Shown piece by piece: positions 29,407-37,328 of a stretch of DNA of 64,000 bases. Each line of letters starts with the position of its first letter. Position 1 is the first letter of the stretch. Position numbers and translations under genes: made by a program. The notes beneath the pieces were generated by a model. The model was not told where the DNA came from and did not search any database. It saw only the letters and a program-made list of their open reading frames with translations. This DNA is from an uncultured Thermoleophilaceae bacterium. GTDB taxonomy: Bacteria; Actinomycetota; Thermoleophilia; Solirubrobacterales; Thermoleophilaceae. The stretch spans positions 23,879-87,878 of the forward strand of contig CAVSGC010000008.1 in NCBI GenBank assembly GCA_963727395.1, read 5' to 3'.

Positions 29407-29837
29407 CGGTCCTTCGCTTCCGCCGCCTGGTGGCCGGGGCGGCCGCCCCGGAGCGCTCCCACGCCGACGACGCCGGGTATGACCTTCGCGCCGCCGAGCA
29501 GGCCGAGCTCGGGCCGGGCGAGCGGGCGAGCGTGGGGACCGGGATCGCCCTCGAGATTCCCGAGGGCCACGGCGGGCTGGTGCTGCCGCGATCGGGCCTG
29601 GCGGCGCGGCACGGCATCGCGTTGGTGAACGCGCCAGGGTTGATCGACGCCGGCTACCGCGGCGAGGTACGGGTGCTGCTGCTGAACACCGACCGCTCGG
29701 AGAGCTTCTCGGTGGAGGTGGGCGACCGGATAGCGCAGCTGCTGCTGGTGCGGCACGAGGCGCTGGAGGTGGTCGAGGCGGAGGAGCTGGCCGAGAGCGC
29801 GCGGGGCGAGGGCGGGTTCGGGTCCACGGGGCGTTGA
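29403..29837 (+). CDS. dut: dUTP diphosphatase
   Basis: TTG at 29403 overlaps the hflX stop. AGYDLRAAE...VGTGIALEIPEGHGGLVLPRSGLAARHGIALVNAPGLIDAGYRGEVRVLLLNTD...VGDRIAQLLLV...RGEGGFGSTGR. All five dUTPase motifs are recognisable and the ORF is intact. Confidence 0.85.
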   Translation: MTVLRFRRLVAGAAAPERSHADDAGYDLRAAEQAELGPGERASVGTGIALEIPEGHGGLVLPRSGLAARHGIALVNAPGLIDAGYRGEVRVLLLNTDRSESFSVEVGDRIAQLLLVRHEALEVVEAEELAESARGEGGFGSTGR

Positions 29838-30386
<549 letters not shown>

Positions 30387-30393
30387 GCGCGAA

Positions 30394-31377
30394 GCTAGGC
30401 CGCCATCGCGGCCAGGCCTTCATCGCGCGCAATGACCGGCCTGTAGCCCAGCTCCCGCCTCGCCTTTCCGATATCCAGCGTGCACTCCTGGGACGAGAGC
30501 CACACGGCCAGGCGCGTCACGGGCGGCTCGCCGCGGCAGCGGCAGCGCCGACCACAGCTTCTCGGCAACCGCCGCCGCCGGGCCCGCCACGGCGGCCGGC
30601 ATCTCCTTGTCCGGCGCTTCGATGCCGCGCGTGGCCACCAGGCGCGTGATGAACTCGCGGAACTGCACCGGCTCGCCGTCGGTCACGAAGTAGGCCTCGC
30701 CGGAGCGCCCCCGCTCGGCGCCGAGCAGCAGCCCCTCCACCACGTTGTCCACGTGGGTCGTGGAGGTGAGGTGCCGGCCGCCGCCGATCCACGCGAAGCG
30801 CCCGCTCTCCATGGCCTGGATCAGGGGCGGGAGGAGGGTGGTGTCGCCGGGGCCCCACACCAGCCGCGGGCGCACCACAACGGTCTCGAAGTCCCTGCCC
30901 GCGGCGCGGCGCACGCGCTGCTCGGCCATCGCCTTGGTGGCGCGGGTAGTGGGCGGTGGAGTCGGGCCTCAGCGGCCACGGTCTCGTCGGCGTTCACCAG
31001 CGGCTTGCCCGCGAGCAGCGCCGCCTCCGTGCCCACGTGCACGAAGCGCCGCACGCCCGCGCGCGCCGCAGGCCACGAGCGCGTTCACGGTGCCCGCCAC
31101 GTTGCCGCGCACAAACTCGTCCCGCGTGCCCCACGCGCCCAGCTTGGCGGCGGAGTGGAAGGCCACGTCGGCAGCCCTGGGCGCCGGCGAGCATCGAGTC
31201 CACGTCGTCGAGGTCTCCGCGCACCGGCTCGGCGCCGGCCTCGGCCACCTTCGCGGCGGATGAGTCCGAGCGAGCGAGTGCGCGCACCTTCCAGCCCTCG
31301 GAGGCCAGGCGGCGCAGCAGCACGTCGCCGATGAAGCCCGACCCGCCGGTCACGAATGCGGTGCGTTGGGTGCCCAC
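30394..31377 (-). pseudogene. NAD-dependent epimerase/dehydratase (SDR-e family); frame disrupted
   Basis: GTG 31377 VGTQRTAFVTGGSGFIGDVLLRRLASEGWKVRALARS (tail of ORF 30994-31503). FVHVGTEAALLAGKPLVNADE (ORF 30821-31054). VVVRPRLVWGPGDTTLLPPLIQAMESGRFAWIGGGRHLTSTTHVDNVVEGLLLGAERGRSGEAYFVTDGEPV (ORF 30420-30929). C-terminus ECTLDIGKARRELGYRPVIARDEGLAAMAA-TAG is in a further frame. Confidence 0.7.
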
Positions 31378-31391
31378 CTTCGAAACGCTAC

Positions 31392-32114
31392 CTACACCCC
31401 CGCCGCCCGCCGCGCCGACGCATGCGCCGCCTCCTCCATCGCGTCGTCCAGGGGCTCCAGCTCCACACCGAGCGCCAGCTCGATCAGGCGGTCGGCCAGC
31501 CACACGTTCTTGGGCAGCAGCGGGCCATGGAGGTAGGTGCCGACCACGTTTGCGCGGTGCACGCCCTCGAACCCGTCGCGGTCGTTGTTGCCGTGGCCGG
31601 CGAGCACGCGACCCAGCGGCTTCTCGTCCGGGCCGAGGTAGGTGCGCCCGCCGTGGTTCTCGAAGCCGGCGATCGTGCGAGGGCCCGTGCCCAGGTCGGC
31701 CTCGATGGCGCAGTTGCCGATCAGCCGCTCGCCCTCCTCGCGCACCGTGTACAGGTCCACGAGCCCCACCCCGGGCAGCTCGCGCTCACCCAGCTGGTAG
31801 CTGTGTCCCAGCAGCTGGTAGCCGCCGCACACCGCCAGCACGGCGGCGCCCCGGTCCGCCGCGGCGTGCAGCGCTTCGCGCTTGGTGCGCTGCATGTCCT
31901 CGGCCACCGCGATCTGGTCGCGATCCTGGCCGCCGCCGATGTAGAAGAGGTCGTGGGCGCCGCCGTCCAGCCGCTCCTCCACGGTGGAGGAGGCCAGCTC
32001 GAAGCCCAGCCCGCGCCACTCGCAGCGCGCCCGCAGGATCGCGATGTTGCCGCGGTCGGCGTAGATGTTCATCAGCTCCGGGTAGAGCGCGCACACACGC
32101 AGCGTGGCGGTCAT
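31392..32114 (-). CDS. gatD: lipid II isoglutaminyl synthase, glutaminase subunit GatD (CobB/CobQ-like amidotransferase)
   Basis: Intact 240-aa ORF. YADRGNIAILRARCEWRG, LFYIGGGQDRDQ, AVCGGYQLLG (nucleophile Cys context), GFENHGGRTYLG, GTYLHGPLLPKN. The ATG overlaps the upstream stop (ATGA, 32111-32114). Confidence 0.8.
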   Translation of the reverse strand: MTATLRVCALYPELMNIYADRGNIAILRARCEWRGLGFELASSTVEERLDGGAHDLFYIGGGQDRDQIAVAEDMQRTKREALHAAADRGAAVLAVCGGYQLLGHSYQLGERELPGVGLVDLYTVREEGERLIGNCAIEADLGTGPRTIAGFENHGGRTYLGPDEKPLGRVLAGHGNNDRDGFEGVHRANVVGTYLHGPLLPKNVWLADRLIELALGVELEPLDDAMEEAAHASARRAAGV

Positions 32115-32863
32115 CGCGGCGCCTCCAGGAGCACGAGCGAGCTGCCCACGTAGTCGCGAGTGGGGGGGACGGTGAGCAGCTCGGTGGCGGTGAGTCCCAC
32201 GGCCACGGCCTCCTCGGACAGCCCCCCGGGGGTGACCGAGTCCAGCCGGATCGTGAACGTCTCCTCGGTGAGCTCACCCGCGGGCGACACCGCCTGGCGC
32301 TGGCGGTGGATCGACACGGCGTGGCCCTCGTCGCGCACGTCGACCGGGATGGAGGAGAGCACCCAGCCGTCGATCTCCAGCACGTCGGGCAGGGGAGGGA
32401 GCGCCTCGCGCGCGGGCACAGAGGAGAACGGGTCGGCGAGTGCCACGGCCAGCACGCCGCCGGGCTCGAGGTGGGCGAGCACGCACCCGAGCATCGCCGT
32501 GCGCCCGGCCGGCCCGCCGAGCAGCTGAACCACCTGCATCGGGGCGATGGCGAGCGCGAAGCGCCCGGGCAGGTCGAAGCTGCGTGCGTCGGCCACCACT
32601 CCGCGGACGGGCAACCCCCGGGCACGGGCGCGGTCCTCCAGCGCGTGGACCAGCTCGGCGTCGGCATCCAGGCCCACCACCTCGTGGCCGCGGGCGGCCA
32701 GGTCCAGCGCCACCCTGCCGGTGCCGCAGCCCAGGTCGAGCACGGCGCCGCCGGAGCGGCGCTCGGCCAGCTCGCGCCAGGCGGGGAGGTCGGCCGCGTA
32801 GCCAGAGCACTCCACGTCGTGCCAGGCCGCGGCGTCCGGGCGGGTGAGCGAGCGCCCGCTCAC
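32111..32863 (-). CDS. class I SAM-dependent methyltransferase, substrate unknown
   Basis: GTG 32863 (GTGA overlap with the upstream stop). WHDVECSGYAADLPAWRELAERRSGGAVLDLGCGTGRVALDLAARGHEVVGLDAD (motif I)...LLGCVLAHLEPGGVLAV. About 250 aa, uninterrupted tail of ORF 32111-33097. Confidence 0.75.
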   Translation of the reverse strand: MSGRSLTRPDAAAWHDVECSGYAADLPAWRELAERRSGGAVLDLGCGTGRVALDLAARGHEVVGLDADAELVHALEDRARARGLPVRGVVADARSFDLPGRFALAIAPMQVVQLLGGPAGRTAMLGCVLAHLEPGGVLAVALADPFSSVPAREALPPLPDVLEIDGWVLSSIPVDVRDEGHAVSIHRQRQAVSPAGELTEETFTIRLDSVTPGGLSEEAVAVGLTATELLTVPPTRDYVGSSLVLLEAPR

Positions 32864-33426
32864 ACCGGCACCTCCCGCGGCGCGGGCGCGTCCTCGGGGA
32901 GGTCGAGGCGTTCGAGGTCCCACACCGGCAGGTCGTCCAGGTCCGACGACTCGGCGAAGGCGCGCTGCTGGGCTGCGCCCAGCGCGGCGAAGCCCGCGCG
33001 CACTCGCTCGATGTAGTCGCGCGAGACCACCACACGCCCCTCGGCCCTCCCGCGCCGCAGGCGCTCGCGGCCCTCCTCCTTGCCGCGATAGGTCCATACG
33101 CGGCCGTCCACGCCGTCGATTCGGTCCGTCACGTCCACGCGGTCGTAGTTGCGCTCGCGGCTGTCCAGCAACTCGAGCTCCGCGTCGTCCACCGGGCGGG
33201 CCAGGCCGCCCACGGTGGTGCCGGGATCCGGCTCGATGTCCACGAAGGCCACGAACACGGCGGGGCGCACGCCGTCGGAGCGGCGCAGGTACATCTTGTA
33301 GCCGGGGATGGCGACGGTGTTGTCGGTGGCCACGCCAAAGCGCCTGCGGTACCCGCGCAGGCGCGCCGGCAAGCCCTGACCCGCCCAGTCGCCCACCAGC
33401 GAGGCGTAGCCGAAGACATGCTCCAT
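32860..33426 (-). CDS. gamma-glutamylcyclotransferase (GGCT/AIG2-like) family protein
   Basis: ATG 33424-33426 overlaps the murT TGA by 1 nt. MEHVFGYASLV (YGSL-type motif)...PAVFVAFVDIEPDP...DDAELELLDSRERNYDRVDV (E-x-x-Y-x-R motif). About 188 aa, uninterrupted tail of ORF 32860-34764. Confidence 0.65.
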   Translation of the reverse strand: MEHVFGYASLVGDWAGQGLPARLRGYRRRFGVATDNTVAIPGYKMYLRRSDGVRPAVFVAFVDIEPDPGTTVGGLARPVDDAELELLDSRERNYDRVDVTDRIDGVDGRVWTYRGKEEGRERLRRGRAEGRVVVSRDYIERVRAGFAALGAAQQRAFAESSDLDDLPVWDLERLDLPEDAPAPREVPV

Positions 33427-34795
33427 CAGTCCGCCCACCGCCGGGCCAGGCCGCGGTCGGCCAACAGGTCGCGCAGCTCGATCAGCGCGGTGTAGGTGGG
33501 AAGCGCGTAGAGCGGACGGCCGTCCTCGCGCCCGGCGGCCACGGCCGCGTCCAGCGAGTCGGCAAGGTCGCGATCCACGGCGATCTCGGCGTCGATCCCG
33601 GCGTACTTCATCCGCAGCGCCATCTCCTCCGCGCGCGTGCCCGAGCACGTCGCGCGGCGCACGCGGCCGGCCAGCAGCTCGAAGTCCGCGTCCCAGATCC
33701 ACGACACGTCGCGGCCGTCGGCGATCCGGTCGTTCAGCGCCAGCCACAGGTCCACCTGGCCGTCCTCGAGGATGAGGGTGCGCAGCACCTCGTTCGCCCC
33801 GGCCGGGTTCTTCACCAGCAGGATCGACACGCGGGCGCCCGTCCACCGGGATCGTCTCCACCCGCCCAAACGACCCGGCAAAGCCCTCGAGCGCCTCACC
33901 GATCTGCGTCAGCGAGGCGCCCAGCTCCAGCGACAGTGCCGTGGCCGCCACCGCGTTGTAGACGTTGTAGAGGCCGGGAAGGGGGAGGGAGAGGTCGAGG
34001 GGGCCCGCCGGGGTTTCCATAACCACCCGCGCGCCGGACATCCCATGCAGCTCCACCTGCCGGGCGGACACCGACGGCGTGGGCCGCTGGCGGCCGCAGT
34101 TGGGGCAGCGGTAGCGGCCCATGTGGCCGAGGTAGACGGCTTCGTAGACGTAGGGATGCCCGCAGTTGCGGCAGTGCTTGGAGTCGGCGGCGTGCTGGAG
34201 GGTGGGGACCGCCTGCGAGTCGTCGTCCACGCCGAAGTACGTCACGCCCTCGCGGCCCCGGCCGAGGTCGGCCACCAGCGGGTCGTCGGCGTTGAGCACG
34301 AACCGCGCCCCGCGCGCCTCCTCGGTCTCGGCCAGCTCGGCCCAGCGGTCGGCCAGCAGCTCCAGCTCGCCGTAGCGGTCGAGCTGGTCGCGGAAGAGGT
34401 TGGCCAGCAGATACGTGCGGGGCCTCACGGCCTCGGCCACGCTCTGGAAGCCAGGCCTCGTCCACCTCGAAGAGCCCCAGCTGGCCGGGCTCGCGCCCGG
34501 CGTCGAGCAGGGCGGTGGCCACGCCCCAGCCCATGTTCGAGCCCGCGCGGTTGTGCACCACGGGCCTGCCGGCGCGCTCGAGCACGGCGGCCACCATCGC
34601 CGAGGTGGTGGTCTTGCCGTTGGTGGCCGACACGACCACCGCGCCCTCGTCCAGCCGGGAGGCCATCCGCCCAAGCGCCCGGTGGTCGGCTCGCATGAGC
34701 AGCCGGCCCGGGAGGGTGGTTCCGCCGCCGCGACCCAGCCGGCGCGAGAGCAGGCGCACGCCACGGGCGATCGTCTCCAGGATCCGGGACATCAC
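33426..34795 (-). pseudogene. murT: lipid II isoglutaminyl synthase, Mur-ligase-like subunit MurT; two frame switches near 34440 and 33850
   Basis: LPGRLLMRADHRALGRMASRLDEGAVVVSATNGKTTTSAMVAAVLE...FEVDEAWLP (ORF 33896-34795). YLLANLFRDQLDRYGELE...Cys4 ribbon CRNCGHPYVYEAVYLGHMGRYRCPNCG...LPGLYNVYNAVAATALSLELG (ORF 32860-34764 frame). SILLVKNPAGANEVLRTL...LNDRIADGRDVSWIWDADFE...ALPTYTALIELRDLL (ORF 33426-33899). Confidence 0.8.
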
Positions 34796-35697
34796 TCCGG
34801 CACGACCACACGCAGGCAGCGCGGGCGGACGGTGATGGTGGCGGGCACCGTGCCGATCGGGTCGCCGTCGGCGTAGATGGCGAACGGGCGGTCGGCGTCC
34901 ACCTCGATGGCCGAGCCGGTCATCGTCTGGACGCTGGGATCGGACAGGTGAGTGCCCTTGAACACACGGGGAAGCACGGAGAAGAGGAAGTGGCGCTTGG
35001 AGACCTGCCCGCAGGCCACCACGTCGAGCAGGCCGTCGTCCAGCTCGGCCTGCGGCGCCGCGAACATGCCGCCCCCGTAGGCCTTGGAGTTGCAGGCGCC
35101 GACCGAGTAGCCCACGATCTCGTGCCGCTCGCCGTCCACCGTGACGGTGAAGGAGGCGGGCTTCCAGGCGGCCAGCGCACGCAGTGCGGCGTACAGGTAG
35201 ACGAGGTTGCCGCGGATCACGCGTGACTCGTTGGCGATCCGGTTGGCGTCGGAGTCGAAGCCGAAGCTGGCGATGCCCAGGTAGGGCACGCCGTCCACCG
35301 CGGCCACGTCGATCATGCGCTCCTTCCCCTGGGCGGCCACCGCCGCTGCCGCTGTGGGATCGGTGGGGATGCCGAGCACTCGCGCCAGGTCGTTTCCGCG
35401 ACCCGCCGGCACGATCGCCAGCGACGCTCCGGTGTCGCGCAGCACCTCCGCCAGCGGGCGCAGCAGGCCGTCGCCTCCCACGGCCACCACCGTCTCGCCG
35501 TTCTCGGCCGCCCGCCCCGCCTCCTCGCGGGCGTGCTCGATATCGCGGGTGTGCACGACGCGGTGCTCGGCCCCGAGCCGTTCGAGCTCTGCCGTGACCT
35601 GCGGGAGCCGCCGCACCGAGCGGCCGCCGCCCGCAGCGGGGTTGACCAGCACGAGCAGGCGGCGAGTCACTCGTTCATCGCCGCCGGCGCGCCGCAC
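34792..35697 (-). CDS. diacylglycerol kinase-family lipid kinase (YegS/BmrU-like)
   Basis: Intact 301-aa ORF. LLVLVNPAAGGGRS, VVAVGGDGLLRPL, AIVPAGRGNDLARVLG, SFGFDSDAN...NLVYLYAAL...GGGMFAAPQAELDDGLLDVV. The stop overlaps the murT start (GTGA). Confidence 0.8.
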   Translation of the reverse strand: MRRAGGDERVTRRLLVLVNPAAGGGRSVRRLPQVTAELERLGAEHRVVHTRDIEHAREEAGRAAENGETVVAVGGDGLLRPLAEVLRDTGASLAIVPAGRGNDLARVLGIPTDPTAAAAVAAQGKERMIDVAAVDGVPYLGIASFGFDSDANRIANESRVIRGNLVYLYAALRALAAWKPASFTVTVDGERHEIVGYSVGACNSKAYGGGMFAAPQAELDDGLLDVVACGQVSKRHFLFSVLPRVFKGTHLSDPSVQTMTGSAIEVDADRPFAIYADGDPIGTVPATITVRPRCLRVVVPE

Positions 35698-35774
35698 ATG
35701 GCCTCAAAGTATGTCGGGGGCGGGGGCGAAAAGCGCGGCGCCATTCCCTTGGGGGATAAACGAGGGAGGTCGCG

Positions 35775-36240
35775 ATGAGGGAGCCCAAGAGGATCTGGTG
35801 GGCCAGGCCGCGCAAGCTGTGCGCGCTGGAGCGCCCGGGCGGCGGCGGGCGCAGCCACCGGCCCGACCGCCGGGAGGCGGAGATCGCCTGGCTGAAGCGC
35901 CACGGCGTGCGCCTGTGCGTGTCCACGATGACCACGCGCCACAACCTGGCCCACTACGAGGCGGCGGGCCTGGAGGCCCACCACCTGCCCGTGGCGTCGG
36001 CAGCCGAGGGAGCGGACGCCCTCGAGGAGCTGCTCGGGCTGCTGCGCCGGGAGACGAGGCGCAGGGGCGCGGTGGCCATCCACGGCAACCGCCACACCGA
36101 TTTCGTGGCGGCGGTGTGCGCGGCCCATCTGTATGGCACGCGTGGCGTGGACCCGGCCGAGGGGCTGCGGGCCGCGGCCGAGGCGGGGCTGGTGGTGAGC
36201 CCGGAGGCGTGCCGAGCTGCTCGGCGTGTCCTACGGGGCG
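35775..36240 (+). CDS. dual-specificity-phosphatase-like protein lacking the catalytic Cys; 3' end uncertain
   Basis: SD gagggagg precedes the ATG. Layout ...WLKRHGVRLCVSTMT...YEAAGLEAHHLPVAS...LEELLGLLRRETRRRGAVAIHGNRHTDFVAAVCAAHLY parallels DSP/PTP folds, but the HC-x5-R P-loop reads HGNRHTD. There is no in-frame stop before 36917, so the end is set where the convergent gene begins. Confidence 0.4.
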
Positions 36241-36524
36241 GTCCAGCCGCGTTCGGCCATCGCGGCCTCCACGTCGGCGGGGCGGTCGGTGACCACGTAG
36301 GCGTCCACGATCGCGCCCTCGGTGTTGATGGTGATCGAGAGCCCCGATTCCGTGCGCCTCACCTTCGAGATCTGCGCGATGGGGCGCCCCGAGCCCATGC
36401 GCGGCTTCACGCGCCCGGTGGCCACGCTGTGCACGGCTTCGATCGCCTCGAGGCCGTCCAGCAGCCGGCGGTAGCCCTTCTTGGAGGAGTGCTTGTGGTG
36501 GGTCTTGCGCGCCACGGTGCTCAA
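36231..36524 (-). CDS. small conserved hypothetical protein (possibly DUF2103-like)
   Basis: Intact 97-aa ORF. KTHHKHSSKKGYRRLLDGLEAIEAVHSVATGRVKPRMGSGRPIAQISKVRRTESGLSITINTEGAIVDAYVV. The family assignment is from memory only. Confidence 0.5.
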   Translation of the reverse strand: MSTVARKTHHKHSSKKGYRRLLDGLEAIEAVHSVATGRVKPRMGSGRPIAQISKVRRTESGLSITINTEGAIVDAYVVTDRPADVEAAMAERGWTAP

Positions 36525-37328
36525 CCCCGGCCGTTCACCAGTGCGGCGAGGTTGTCGGCCACCTCCACCGGCTTCGCGCTCTTGCCGTCGGCGGACACAG
36601 AGCCGGAACCGTCGCCGCTGAGCACCAGCGCGGCGTCCACGCCCGCGGCGTGGGCCGCCTCCACGTCGGCGTCCAGGCGATCGCCCACCACCAGCGTGCG
36701 GCCCTCGCCGAGACGGTCCAGCGCGGTCTCGATCAGCCGCGGCTCGGGCTTGCCCACGATCTCCGCCTGCCGGCCCGTGGCGGTCTCCACAGCCGCCAGG
36801 ATCGCGCCGGTACCGGGCCAGGGCCCATCTGGCGTGGGCAGGGTGGGGTCGCGCCCCGTGGCGATCAGGTGCGCTCCGCGATGGACCGCGAGCGACGCGG
36901 TGCGCAGGGCGTCGTAGTCCACCTGGTCGGTGCCGCCGATCACCACAACCTCGGCGTTGGTGGGCCGGTCGGTGCCGTTGACAGCCTCAGGCCGGCGTCG
37001 GCCACGTGCGCGTGAGCGCGGGGCTGCCGATCACGAAAGCCGCCTGGCCCGTGCGCGTGTCGGCCAGCAGGTGCTGCATGGCCCCGCCCACGGTCACCAC
37101 GTCGGCCAGCGAGGCCTGGACGCCCATCCGCCACAGGTGGGCCACGTGGTCCTCGCCGGGGTGCCAGGAGTTGTTGGTGGCGAAGGCCACGCGCTTGCCG
37201 GCGGCCCGCAGCGTGGCGATCGCCTCCGCCGAGCCCTCCACCGGGTCTTCGCCCACCCACACGCACCCGTCGAGGTCCAGGATCACCTGGTCATAGCCGC
37301 GCAGAAGGGGGGAGAGGGTGGATGTCAT
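36521..37328 (-). pseudogene. HAD-IIA family hydrolase (NagD-like); two frame switches near 36940-37000
   Basis: MTSTLSPLLRGYDQVILDLDGCVWVGEDPVEGSAEAIATLRAAGKRVAFATNNS (tail of ORF 36987-37562). VIGGTDQVDYDALRTASLAVHRGAHLIATGRDPTLPTPDGPWPGTGAILAAVETATGRQAEIVGKPEPRLIETAL...VVGDRLDADVEAAHAAGVDAALVLSG (ORF 36521-36946). Confidence 0.7.

Follow-up and report, generated by a model that had tools for sequence, protein, structure and literature searches.

A methyltransferase gene conserved between murT and gatD in a possible extended lipid II isoglutamine synthase operon of the Solirubrobacterales

We analyzed a 64,000-nucleotide stretch of DNA (hereafter, the window) from an uncultured Thermoleophilaceae bacterium (GenBank assembly GCA_963727395.1, contig CAVSGC010000008.1, positions 23,879 to 87,878), in which murT and gatD, the genes for the two subunits of lipid II isoglutaminyl synthase, are separated by genes encoding a gamma-glutamylcyclotransferase (GGCT)-fold protein and a class I S-adenosylmethionine (SAM)-dependent methyltransferase (MT). 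MurT and GatD constitute an essential and well-studied drug target. The results presented here establish that the murT-MT-gatD arrangement is conserved across loci with the labels Solirubrobacteraceae and Thermoleophilaceae, and that it is joined by the GGCT-fold gene in a Thermoleophilaceae-type branch. The reading that we favor, tentatively and with somewhat less than even confidence, is that of a lipid II isoglutamine synthase operon in an extended form particular to this lineage, comprising a lipid kinase, MurT, in some loci the GGCT-fold enzyme, the MT and GatD, in which the additional enzymes would take on tailoring roles.

Conservation of the murT-MT-gatD arrangement

A search with the GGCT-fold protein, limited to one genome per species, yielded 80 loci, nearly all labelled Thermoleophilia or unclassified actinobacterial metagenome-assembled genomes (MAGs). 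The kinase, MurT, GGCT-fold, MT and GatD genes occur in the same order as in the window in 34 of these loci, which belong to the Thermoleophilaceae and to some MAGs labelled Solirubrobacterales, and 46 loci (Solirubrobacteraceae, Conexibacter arvalis and others) harbor no murT, MT or gatD gene within 8 kb. A direct look-up of genomic context for the GGCT-fold protein of the window itself (P0001) returned no entry. A profile-free search for the MT among 1.8 billion representatives identified 187 clusters matching over the full length at E ≤ 1e-30, with 38-60% identity. Every distant MT whose context was readable (37-48% identity) is encoded directly after murT, with the kinase before it and no GGCT-fold gene, and directly precedes gatD wherever downstream sequence existed; one of these MTs belongs to a Solirubrobacteraceae MAG (MCK9249056.1). 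A metagenome scan seeded on a distant MT member contributed 80 further loci. Altogether, the MT gene has murT, or murT and the GGCT-fold gene, upstream and gatD downstream in 92 of the 97 loci in which both flanks could be judged, a set that contains a few duplicate contigs. Cultured carriers of the MT were sought among the members of two MT clusters, which comprised only MAG or unlabelled entries.

In all related loci that extend far enough, murT is directly preceded by the lipid kinase gene, apart from three loci that lack murT. The genes flanking the kinase-to-gatD block differ widely among loci, with the block itself intact, which suggests that the block is being kept and not merely inherited. 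A preliminary description of the window had postulated a module that presupposed recurrence of the insert in relatives and, for the MT, this is what the survey revealed. Overlaps between consecutive genes, mostly of 1 to 13 nt, are also frequent in the relatives, where they were counted at 64 of 74 kinase-murT, 64 of 73 murT-MT, 100 of 112 MT-gatD, 27 of 36 murT-GGCT and 28 of 38 GGCT-MT junctions, in a count that takes the start codon nearest to the upstream stop and is thereby biased towards overlaps. Overlapping stop and start codons are common in high-GC actinobacteria, and those of the window therefore carry little weight by themselves.

The survey also told apart two events in the history of the locus, an ancient insertion of the MT gene and a later recruitment of the GGCT-fold gene. 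The MT is a deep, constant insert in Solirubrobacteraceae- and Thermoleophilaceae-type loci, and the GGCT-fold gene is a later addition of the Thermoleophilaceae type; on the MT tree, the loci harboring the GGCT-fold gene, the window included, form a derived branch. In a neighbor-joining tree of GGCT-fold homologs the operon-type genes do not constitute a clean clade, and a single relocation of this gene into the operon, backed by the MT tree, is only indirectly supported. In about 16 loci (including L019, L024, L031, L036 and L044), the unlinked GGCT-fold gene lies between ispG and an rseP-type site-2 protease gene, inside a proS-ispG-rseP-dxr housekeeping cluster. The earlier proposal that both inserted genes form one D-Glu modification module is thus at odds with their distribution, the MT being constant and the GGCT-fold gene being confined to one family within the operon and found elsewhere in 46 genomes.

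Two loci depart from the order seen in the window with the operon members retained. In L047, which reads GATase_4-GGCT-kinase-MurT-MT-GatD, all members are kept and the GGCT-fold gene has moved upstream of the kinase gene. In L083 (2697-3956), on a short-read Logan contig, murT and gatD enclose an in-frame GGCT-MT fusion of 419 aa (P0230) from which the linker regions of the two constituent proteins are deleted.

Other genes accompany the block in part of the loci. A class II glutamine amidotransferase-type gene (GATase_4) precedes the kinase gene in many Thermoleophilaceae-type loci (L001:4959-5777, L002, L005, L011, L013, L021, L047 and others), is directly followed by the GGCT-fold gene in L047, and is found neither in the window nor in its closest related locus, L003. 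In several non-Thermoleophilaceae loci, a second class I methyltransferase gene, UbiE-like and absent from the window, is found immediately upstream of the kinase gene (L085:3064-3696, L087:3899-4579, L094:4144-4683 and L169:4458-5105), the start of which it overlaps in L169. A further set of glutamyl-peptide enzymes follows gatD directly in one lineage (L087:8521-10894, and also L088-L090), where genes for a RimB-like peptidase, a RimK-type ATP-grasp glutamate ligase and an AstE/AspA-type deacylase are tightly spaced on the same strand.

Layout of the operon and integrity of murT

Direct reading of the minus strand and the list of open reading frames (ORFs) place the genes in the order lipid kinase, murT, GGCT-fold gene, MT, gatD and epimerase (Table 1). 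Consecutive genes overlap at GTGA (34792-34795, kinase and murT), TGATG (33424-33428, murT and GGCT-fold gene), GTGA (32860-32863, GGCT-fold gene and MT) and ATGA (32111-32114, MT and gatD). This order, the gene identities, the four overlaps and the 14-nt gap to the epimerase gene had all been given in the preliminary description and were borne out by the minus-strand reading, the ORF list and Pfam and NCBIfam searches. Of the limits assigned there to the stretch (30394-35697), the kinase end stands and the start is off by one, the epimerase stop codon being at 30395-30397. The epimerase gene directly follows gatD in some relatives only, and is a variable neighbor outside the conserved core.

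Table 1. Features of the murT-gatD locus, in window positions
Feature	Position	Strand	Evidence and remarks
Divergent intergenic gap, kinase start to plus-strand gene at 35775	35698..35774	.	Sequence reading
yegS-type lipid kinase (YegS/Rv2252/BmrU family, soluble)	34792..35697	-	Pfam DAGK_cat and YegS_C; operon gene 1
murT (lipid II isoglutaminyl synthase, ligase subunit)	33426..34795	-	Three frames; Mur_ligase_M and MurT_C
GGCT-fold gene (AIG2/GGACT-like), 188 aa	32860..33426	-	Pfam GGACT, AlphaFold model, Foldseek, synteny
Class I SAM-dependent methyltransferase (MT), 250 aa	32111..32863	-	Methyltransf_25, fold, profile, synteny
gatD (lipid II isoglutaminyl synthase, glutaminase subunit), intact	31392..32114	-	GATase_3
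NAD-dependent epimerase/3-beta-HSD gene	30395..31377	-	Pfam; GTG start 31377, 14 nt past the gatD stop

The lipid kinase passes the NCBIfam TIGR00147 cutoff (145.9 against 118.65), and its start may instead be the GTG at 35670. The gap upstream of it probably bounds the operon on the 5' side and contains the promoter region, the promoter itself being inferred. A simple scan of positions 29800-36600 for sigma-70 promoters and intrinsic terminators returned none and is uninformative for this high-GC lineage (the G+C content of the window is about 72%). Further upstream, the window encodes a 97-aa protein (36231-36524, minus strand) that is 96% identical to its counterpart in L003, far above the conservation of its neighbors, and that has only a weak, sub-threshold match to the metal-binding DUF2103; in L083, the gene for its homolog overlaps the kinase start by 4 nt.

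Both subunits of the amidating complex can be recognized in the window. MurT matched the Mur ligase middle domain (PF08245) and MurT_C (PF08353, DUF1727), and the protein obtained after frame correction aligns end to end with Staphylococcus aureus MurT (6gs2_B, E = 3e-67), including the Cys4 zinc ribbon CRNCG...CPNCG and NDRIADGRDVSWIWDADFE, the DGRD motif whose Asp completes the GatD triad. GatD matched GATase_3 (PF07685) and is similar to GatD structures 9sq9_C (E = 1.5e-46) and 6gs2_A (E = 2.6e-45), its catalytic Cys (VCGGYQLLG) and His (YLHGP) being aligned with those of 9sq9_C. Scores were below the cutoffs of the strict NCBIfam models for GatD (NF045636, 184 bits against 400) and for MurT (NF045635, 84.9 against 800, with the C-terminal MurT fragment alone submitted to scoring); this lowers the certainty of annotation, and not that of orthology. 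As judged from these alignments, MurT and GatD are true orthologs of the structurally characterized complex with their catalytic residues kept, and they should amidate the alpha-carboxylate of D-iso-glutamate (D-iGlu) in lipid II with ATP and glutamine-derived ammonia. The two genes have been reported to "always occur in synteny", being adjacent and co-transcribed in Mycobacterium tuberculosis and S. aureus (PMC8210147), in line with the earlier view that their separation is unusual. They are two genes apart in the window, and the MT gene alone intervenes in about 58 related loci.

The murT gene of the window is read in three frames. Comparison with L003, which is 85-92% identical and was used as the reference for locating insertions, revealed exactly two frame switches, caused by single-base insertions at about 34441 and 33831. 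Deletion of both bases yields an uninterrupted 454-aa MurT without internal stops, whose identity to the L003 protein is 91-92% in the first two thirds and 82% in the remaining, C-terminal third. The epimerase gene carries five single-base insertions relative to L003 (at about 31171, 31062, 30981, 30943 and 30534), and the window also contains a HAD hydrolase gene frameshifted at about 37008 and 36981 and an aminotransferase gene frameshifted once, at about 26743. The inserted bases are an extra C or G beside CG or GTG (for instance, AG[C]GTG, CG[C]GTG and GC[G]CGC), and loci from other long-read MAGs (L002/L012, L006, L016, L018, L023 and L045) show frameshifts in other operon genes. The indels of the window thus look like a systematic base-calling error of a long-read MAG. 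Since unrelated genes of the window and other long-read MAG loci share this defect, we attribute the frame switches in murT to errors of sequencing or assembly, and not to a feature of the locus or to decay, which explains the apparent murT pseudogene as an assembly artifact. The preliminary description had correctly noted the two switches and the intactness of gatD and of the inserted genes, and had left the broken epimerase gene unremarked.

Relatives of the methyltransferase and the GGCT-fold protein

No curated family model covers the window MT in an NCBIfam search. The best-scoring model, the daptide N,N-dimethyltransferase equivalog daptide_MTase, reached 90.7 bits, below its cutoff of 175, and on this score the MT would be a relative of that equivalog and not a member. 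The predicted structure of the MT (predicted local distance difference test, pLDDT, 90) returned TylM1, DesVI, CcbJ, CypM, CalS10, KedS8, CgnL and NmbA as top Foldseek matches, with E values of about 1e-18 and template modeling (TM) scores of 0.7-0.78 over some 245 columns that include the C-terminal beta lid. A profile of the MT family searched against the PDB likewise matched CorZ best (9SOT, 1.4e-21), followed by CypM, CcbJ, an MtfA-type enzyme and NmbA; E values range from 1e-21 to 1e-16 for CorZ, CypM and CcbJ, and are about 4e-8 for TylM1 and 4e-7 for DesVI. Phosphoethanolamine and phosphatidylethanolamine N-methyltransferases appear among the weaker matches. Nearly all of the closest characterized relatives are amine N-methyltransferases, and none are carboxyl O-methyltransferases. 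Among carboxyl methyltransferase models, Tam (NF002463) scored 20.9 bits against a cutoff of 297, which is noise level, and neither PCMT nor CheR matched the MT.

The SAM-site residues G45, G47 and G49 are invariant in the family and D92 nearly so, with D66 invariant in the Thermoleophilaceae-type alignment only. The family also conserves an N-terminal WHDxExxxYxxD motif, a PLPD motif and an R.R pair. CorZ acts on a tripeptide natural product, methylating its free N-terminal amine, and the CorZ study concluded that the reactive group is this amine and not an amide (PMC12951456). By analogy with these nearest characterized relatives, the MT may transfer its methyl group to a free amine. Two other assignments were considered and rejected. 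A HemK/PrmC-like amide N-methyltransferase would have (D/N)PPY after strand 4, where the MT has APMQ, its conserved PLPD lying in the lid, and an ergothioneine-like pathway combining GATase_4 and the MT was discarded as the MT does not resemble EgtD and the window contains no GATase_4 gene.

The 188-aa GGCT-fold protein scored 25.8 bits against Pfam GGACT (cutoff 22.8) when searched alone and 22.7 inside a long spurious ORF, and had no match among NCBIfam models. Its AlphaFold model (pLDDT 87) presents the GGCT beta-barrel, and its top Foldseek matches are ChaC2, GGCT and AIG2, with probability 1.0 and E of about 1e-5 at a TM score of just about 0.5. The protein contains a YGSL-type motif, FGYASL, and a glutamate, Glu91 in LDxRERNYDR, that aligns with the AIG2 Glu; FGYASL and RE[RKQ]NY are both present in 69 of 84 homologs and the Glu motif in 83 of 84. 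GGCT-type cyclotransferases require a free alpha-amine on the gamma-glutamyl residue. Because the alpha-amine of D-iGlu in the stem peptide is acylated by L-Ala, the bond between D-iGlu and diaminopimelic acid (DAP) of an intact stem is an implausible substrate, and this argues against the earlier proposal that the GGCT-fold protein acts on the D-iGlu-diamino acid bond.

Proposed function, alternatives and comparison with known systems

In the extended operon that we favor, the MT would be made stoichiometrically with MurT and GatD and would methylate, with SAM as the donor, the lipid-linked precursor that it shares with them, or would do so as the third subunit of the MurT/GatD complex. That the MT is functionally coupled to the tailoring of lipid II is a working assumption that we regard as possible but not yet probable, and our confidence in N-methylation specifically, which would follow from analogy, is lower still. 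The leading guess for the methyl acceptor would be the diamino acid at position 3 (meso-DAP), through its free H2N-CH(COOH)- end, since nearly all characterized MT relatives methylate free amines, carried by short peptides, by amino sugars or by amino-acid head groups, and a DAP-type stem has no other free amine. Less likely targets are a carboxylate of the stem peptide or the amide of the newly made isoglutamine. Candidate products would be, respectively for these acceptors, an N-methylated diamino acid, a methyl ester or N-methyl-isoglutamine.

The GGCT-fold enzyme, with its motifs kept, would cyclize a gamma-glutamyl group bearing a free alpha-amine to 5-oxoproline, releasing the amine. Most plausibly, it would strip gamma-glutamyl from an amine such as that of N-epsilon-(gamma-glutamyl)-DAP and spare the stem D-iGlu-DAP bond; this substrate is favored because it is of the same kind as epsilon-(gamma-glutamyl)-lysine, the canonical substrate of GGACT, and it would point to the same amine as the guess for the MT. 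The most specific form of this proposal, in which a three-component MurT-MT-GatD machine of the Solirubrobacterales would methylate the stem peptide besides amidating it and the Thermoleophilaceae GGCT-fold enzyme would strip gamma-glutamyl from that same amine, is doubtful.

Several observations weigh against this proposal. All loci were recruited through the MT or the GGCT-fold protein, so that the frequency of the arrangement is given among carriers of these genes and murT-gatD pairs without the MT are not counted. In three loci (L169, L107 and L163), the kinase gene adjoins the MT gene with no murT between them, from which it follows that retention of the MT is not strictly dependent on murT and gatD in cis. 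In L169 (4458-6720), kinase and MT overlap by 4 nt and no gatD lies within 6 kb on each side, in surroundings (dUTPase, hflX, aminotransferase, dapF, miaA and miaB) that match those of loci with the full cassette. A monophyletic clade of seven MT homologs, with about 47% identity to the window MT and PPPP in place of PLPD, is found in unrelated contexts (L147:5992-6714, L173:5992-6738 and L127:1543-2262), two of its loci adjoining rho, and is probably a relocated paralog. The basic function of the GGCT-fold protein is probably independent of MurT and GatD, given that its gene is unlinked in 46 genomes. The substrate proposed for the MT is inferred from gene order and homology, and small-molecule class I methyltransferases switch nucleophile type easily, so that their fold does not settle between N- and O-methylation. 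Finally, a methylated DAP amine would be blocked as a cross-link acceptor, and DAP methylation would therefore have to be limited to a fraction of the stems.

The most serious alternative, which we nonetheless consider rather unlikely, is that the MT and the GGCT-fold enzyme are passengers that share the operon's promoter and act on soluble small molecules, for instance in gamma-glutamyl-amine turnover or in N-methylation of an amine, thiol or osmolyte, their order being kept by inheritance and co-expression. The occurrence of GGCT-fold homologs elsewhere in 46 genomes, the frequent presence upstream of a class II glutaminase-type GATase_4 gene, the small-molecule N-methyltransferases among the MT relatives (NmbA and glycine/sarcosine N-methyltransferase), the MT clade in unrelated contexts and the commonness of 4-nt overlaps in high-GC genomes would all fit this explanation. 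It accounts poorly, however, for an MT gene whose place between murT and gatD is exactly kept in 92 of 97 loci, down to about 37% MT identity and with reshuffled flanks, as a neutral gene splitting the pair for an obligate heterodimer is unlikely to be retained across an order-level clade, and in L047 the GGCT-fold gene moved yet stayed within the operon. It is less probable that the MT is instead the partner of the YegS-type kinase and N-methylates a lipid head group (an aminolipid, a phosphatidylethanolamine-type lipid or a polyprenyl-linked intermediate), with murT and gatD merely co-located. The constant presence of the kinase upstream, the phosphoethanolamine and phosphatidylethanolamine N-methyltransferases among the weaker PDB matches, and the persistence of kinase-MT adjacency, with overlaps of 1 to 4 nt, without murT in L169, L107 and L163, and in L169 also without gatD, are consistent with such a role. 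Kinase and MT are joined without murT in those three loci only, however, whereas in about 90 loci murT separates the MT from the kinase and the MT abuts gatD, and peptides and amino sugars, not lipids, are the substrates of the best characterized MT relatives.

The chemistry put forward in the preliminary description, a carboxyl O-methyltransferase generating stem methyl esters together with a GGCT-fold enzyme acting on the gamma-D-glutamyl-diamino acid bond, is improbable to a slightly greater degree. The position of the genes within the murT/gatD operon and the ability of class I methyltransferases to methylate carboxylates speak for it, as do the invariant R50, R121, R187 and R189, which could bind carboxylates, and methylated lipid II carboxylates were reportedly found in Mycobacterium smegmatis by Mahapatra and colleagues in 2005. 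Against it stand the noise-level scores of carboxyl methyltransferase families, the N- or C-methyltransferase activity of all close characterized relatives and the need of GGCT chemistry for a glutamyl alpha-amine that is acylated in the stem peptide. The link to mycobacterial methyl esters also found no support: no full-length member of the MT family was retrieved from mycobacteria, whose matches were generic (24% coverage, E of about 1e-4), in a word-index-limited search in which the family drops off sharply. Altogether, the observation made in the preliminary description is confirmed and its interpretation partly supported, and the chemistry that it proposed is mostly wrong or beyond the reach of sequence analysis. 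It is least probable, and by a wide measure improbable, that the operon is decaying, with murT as a true pseudogene and the arrangement as a relic. The two frame switches in murT and the five in the adjoining epimerase gene could be taken as signs of decay, but every defect is a single-base indel, with neither in-frame stops nor larger lesions, the corrected MurT retains its identity to L003, unrelated housekeeping genes of the window carry the same defect and other long-read MAGs are shifted in different genes.

The locking of an MT gene between murT and gatD by translational coupling in more than 90 independent loci of an approximately order-level clade provides strong comparative evidence for a third partner of MurT and GatD, and suggests an undescribed chemical modification of lipid II or peptidoglycan. 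If true, it would add a new class to the modifications of peptidoglycan, in an actinobacterial lineage that is among the most abundant in soil, and the suggestion is testable in cultured relatives. In the literature searched, no publication dealt with an MT linked to murT and gatD or with any stem-peptide methyltransferase, and no enzyme was assigned to peptidoglycan stem-peptide methylation in any organism.

Each component of the operon can be compared with characterized systems. The MT shares the class I Rossmann core, the beta lid and the SAM motif with CorZ/BytZ (myxarylin), CypM (cypemycin), the daptide methyltransferase, MtfA-type enzymes, CcbJ and TylM1/DesVI. Its identity to CorZ/CypM/TylM1-type enzymes is just about 20-25%, and it differs from the CorZ/CypM type in an invariant WHDxExxxYxxD and PLPD...DGW...R.R signature and in being encoded in a primary cell-wall operon, not in an antibiotic cluster or one for peptides made on the ribosome and modified after translation (RiPPs). 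The GGCT-fold protein has in common with GGACT, BtrG, ChaC and GGCT the fold, an N-terminal YGSL-type motif and a conserved Glu in an LDxxE..Y.R context, but unlike them it is extended at the C-terminus by about 60 residues, a feature restricted to the Thermoleophilia family, and a murT/gatD operon context has been described for no characterized member of these groups. As in the murT-gatD operons of S. aureus, Streptococcus pneumoniae and M. tuberculosis (Rv3712-Rv3713), orthologous MurT and GatD are encoded in a single operon in the window. In those known operons, however, the two genes are adjacent, whereas in the window the MT and GGCT-fold genes lie between them and a YegS-type lipid kinase gene is translationally coupled upstream.

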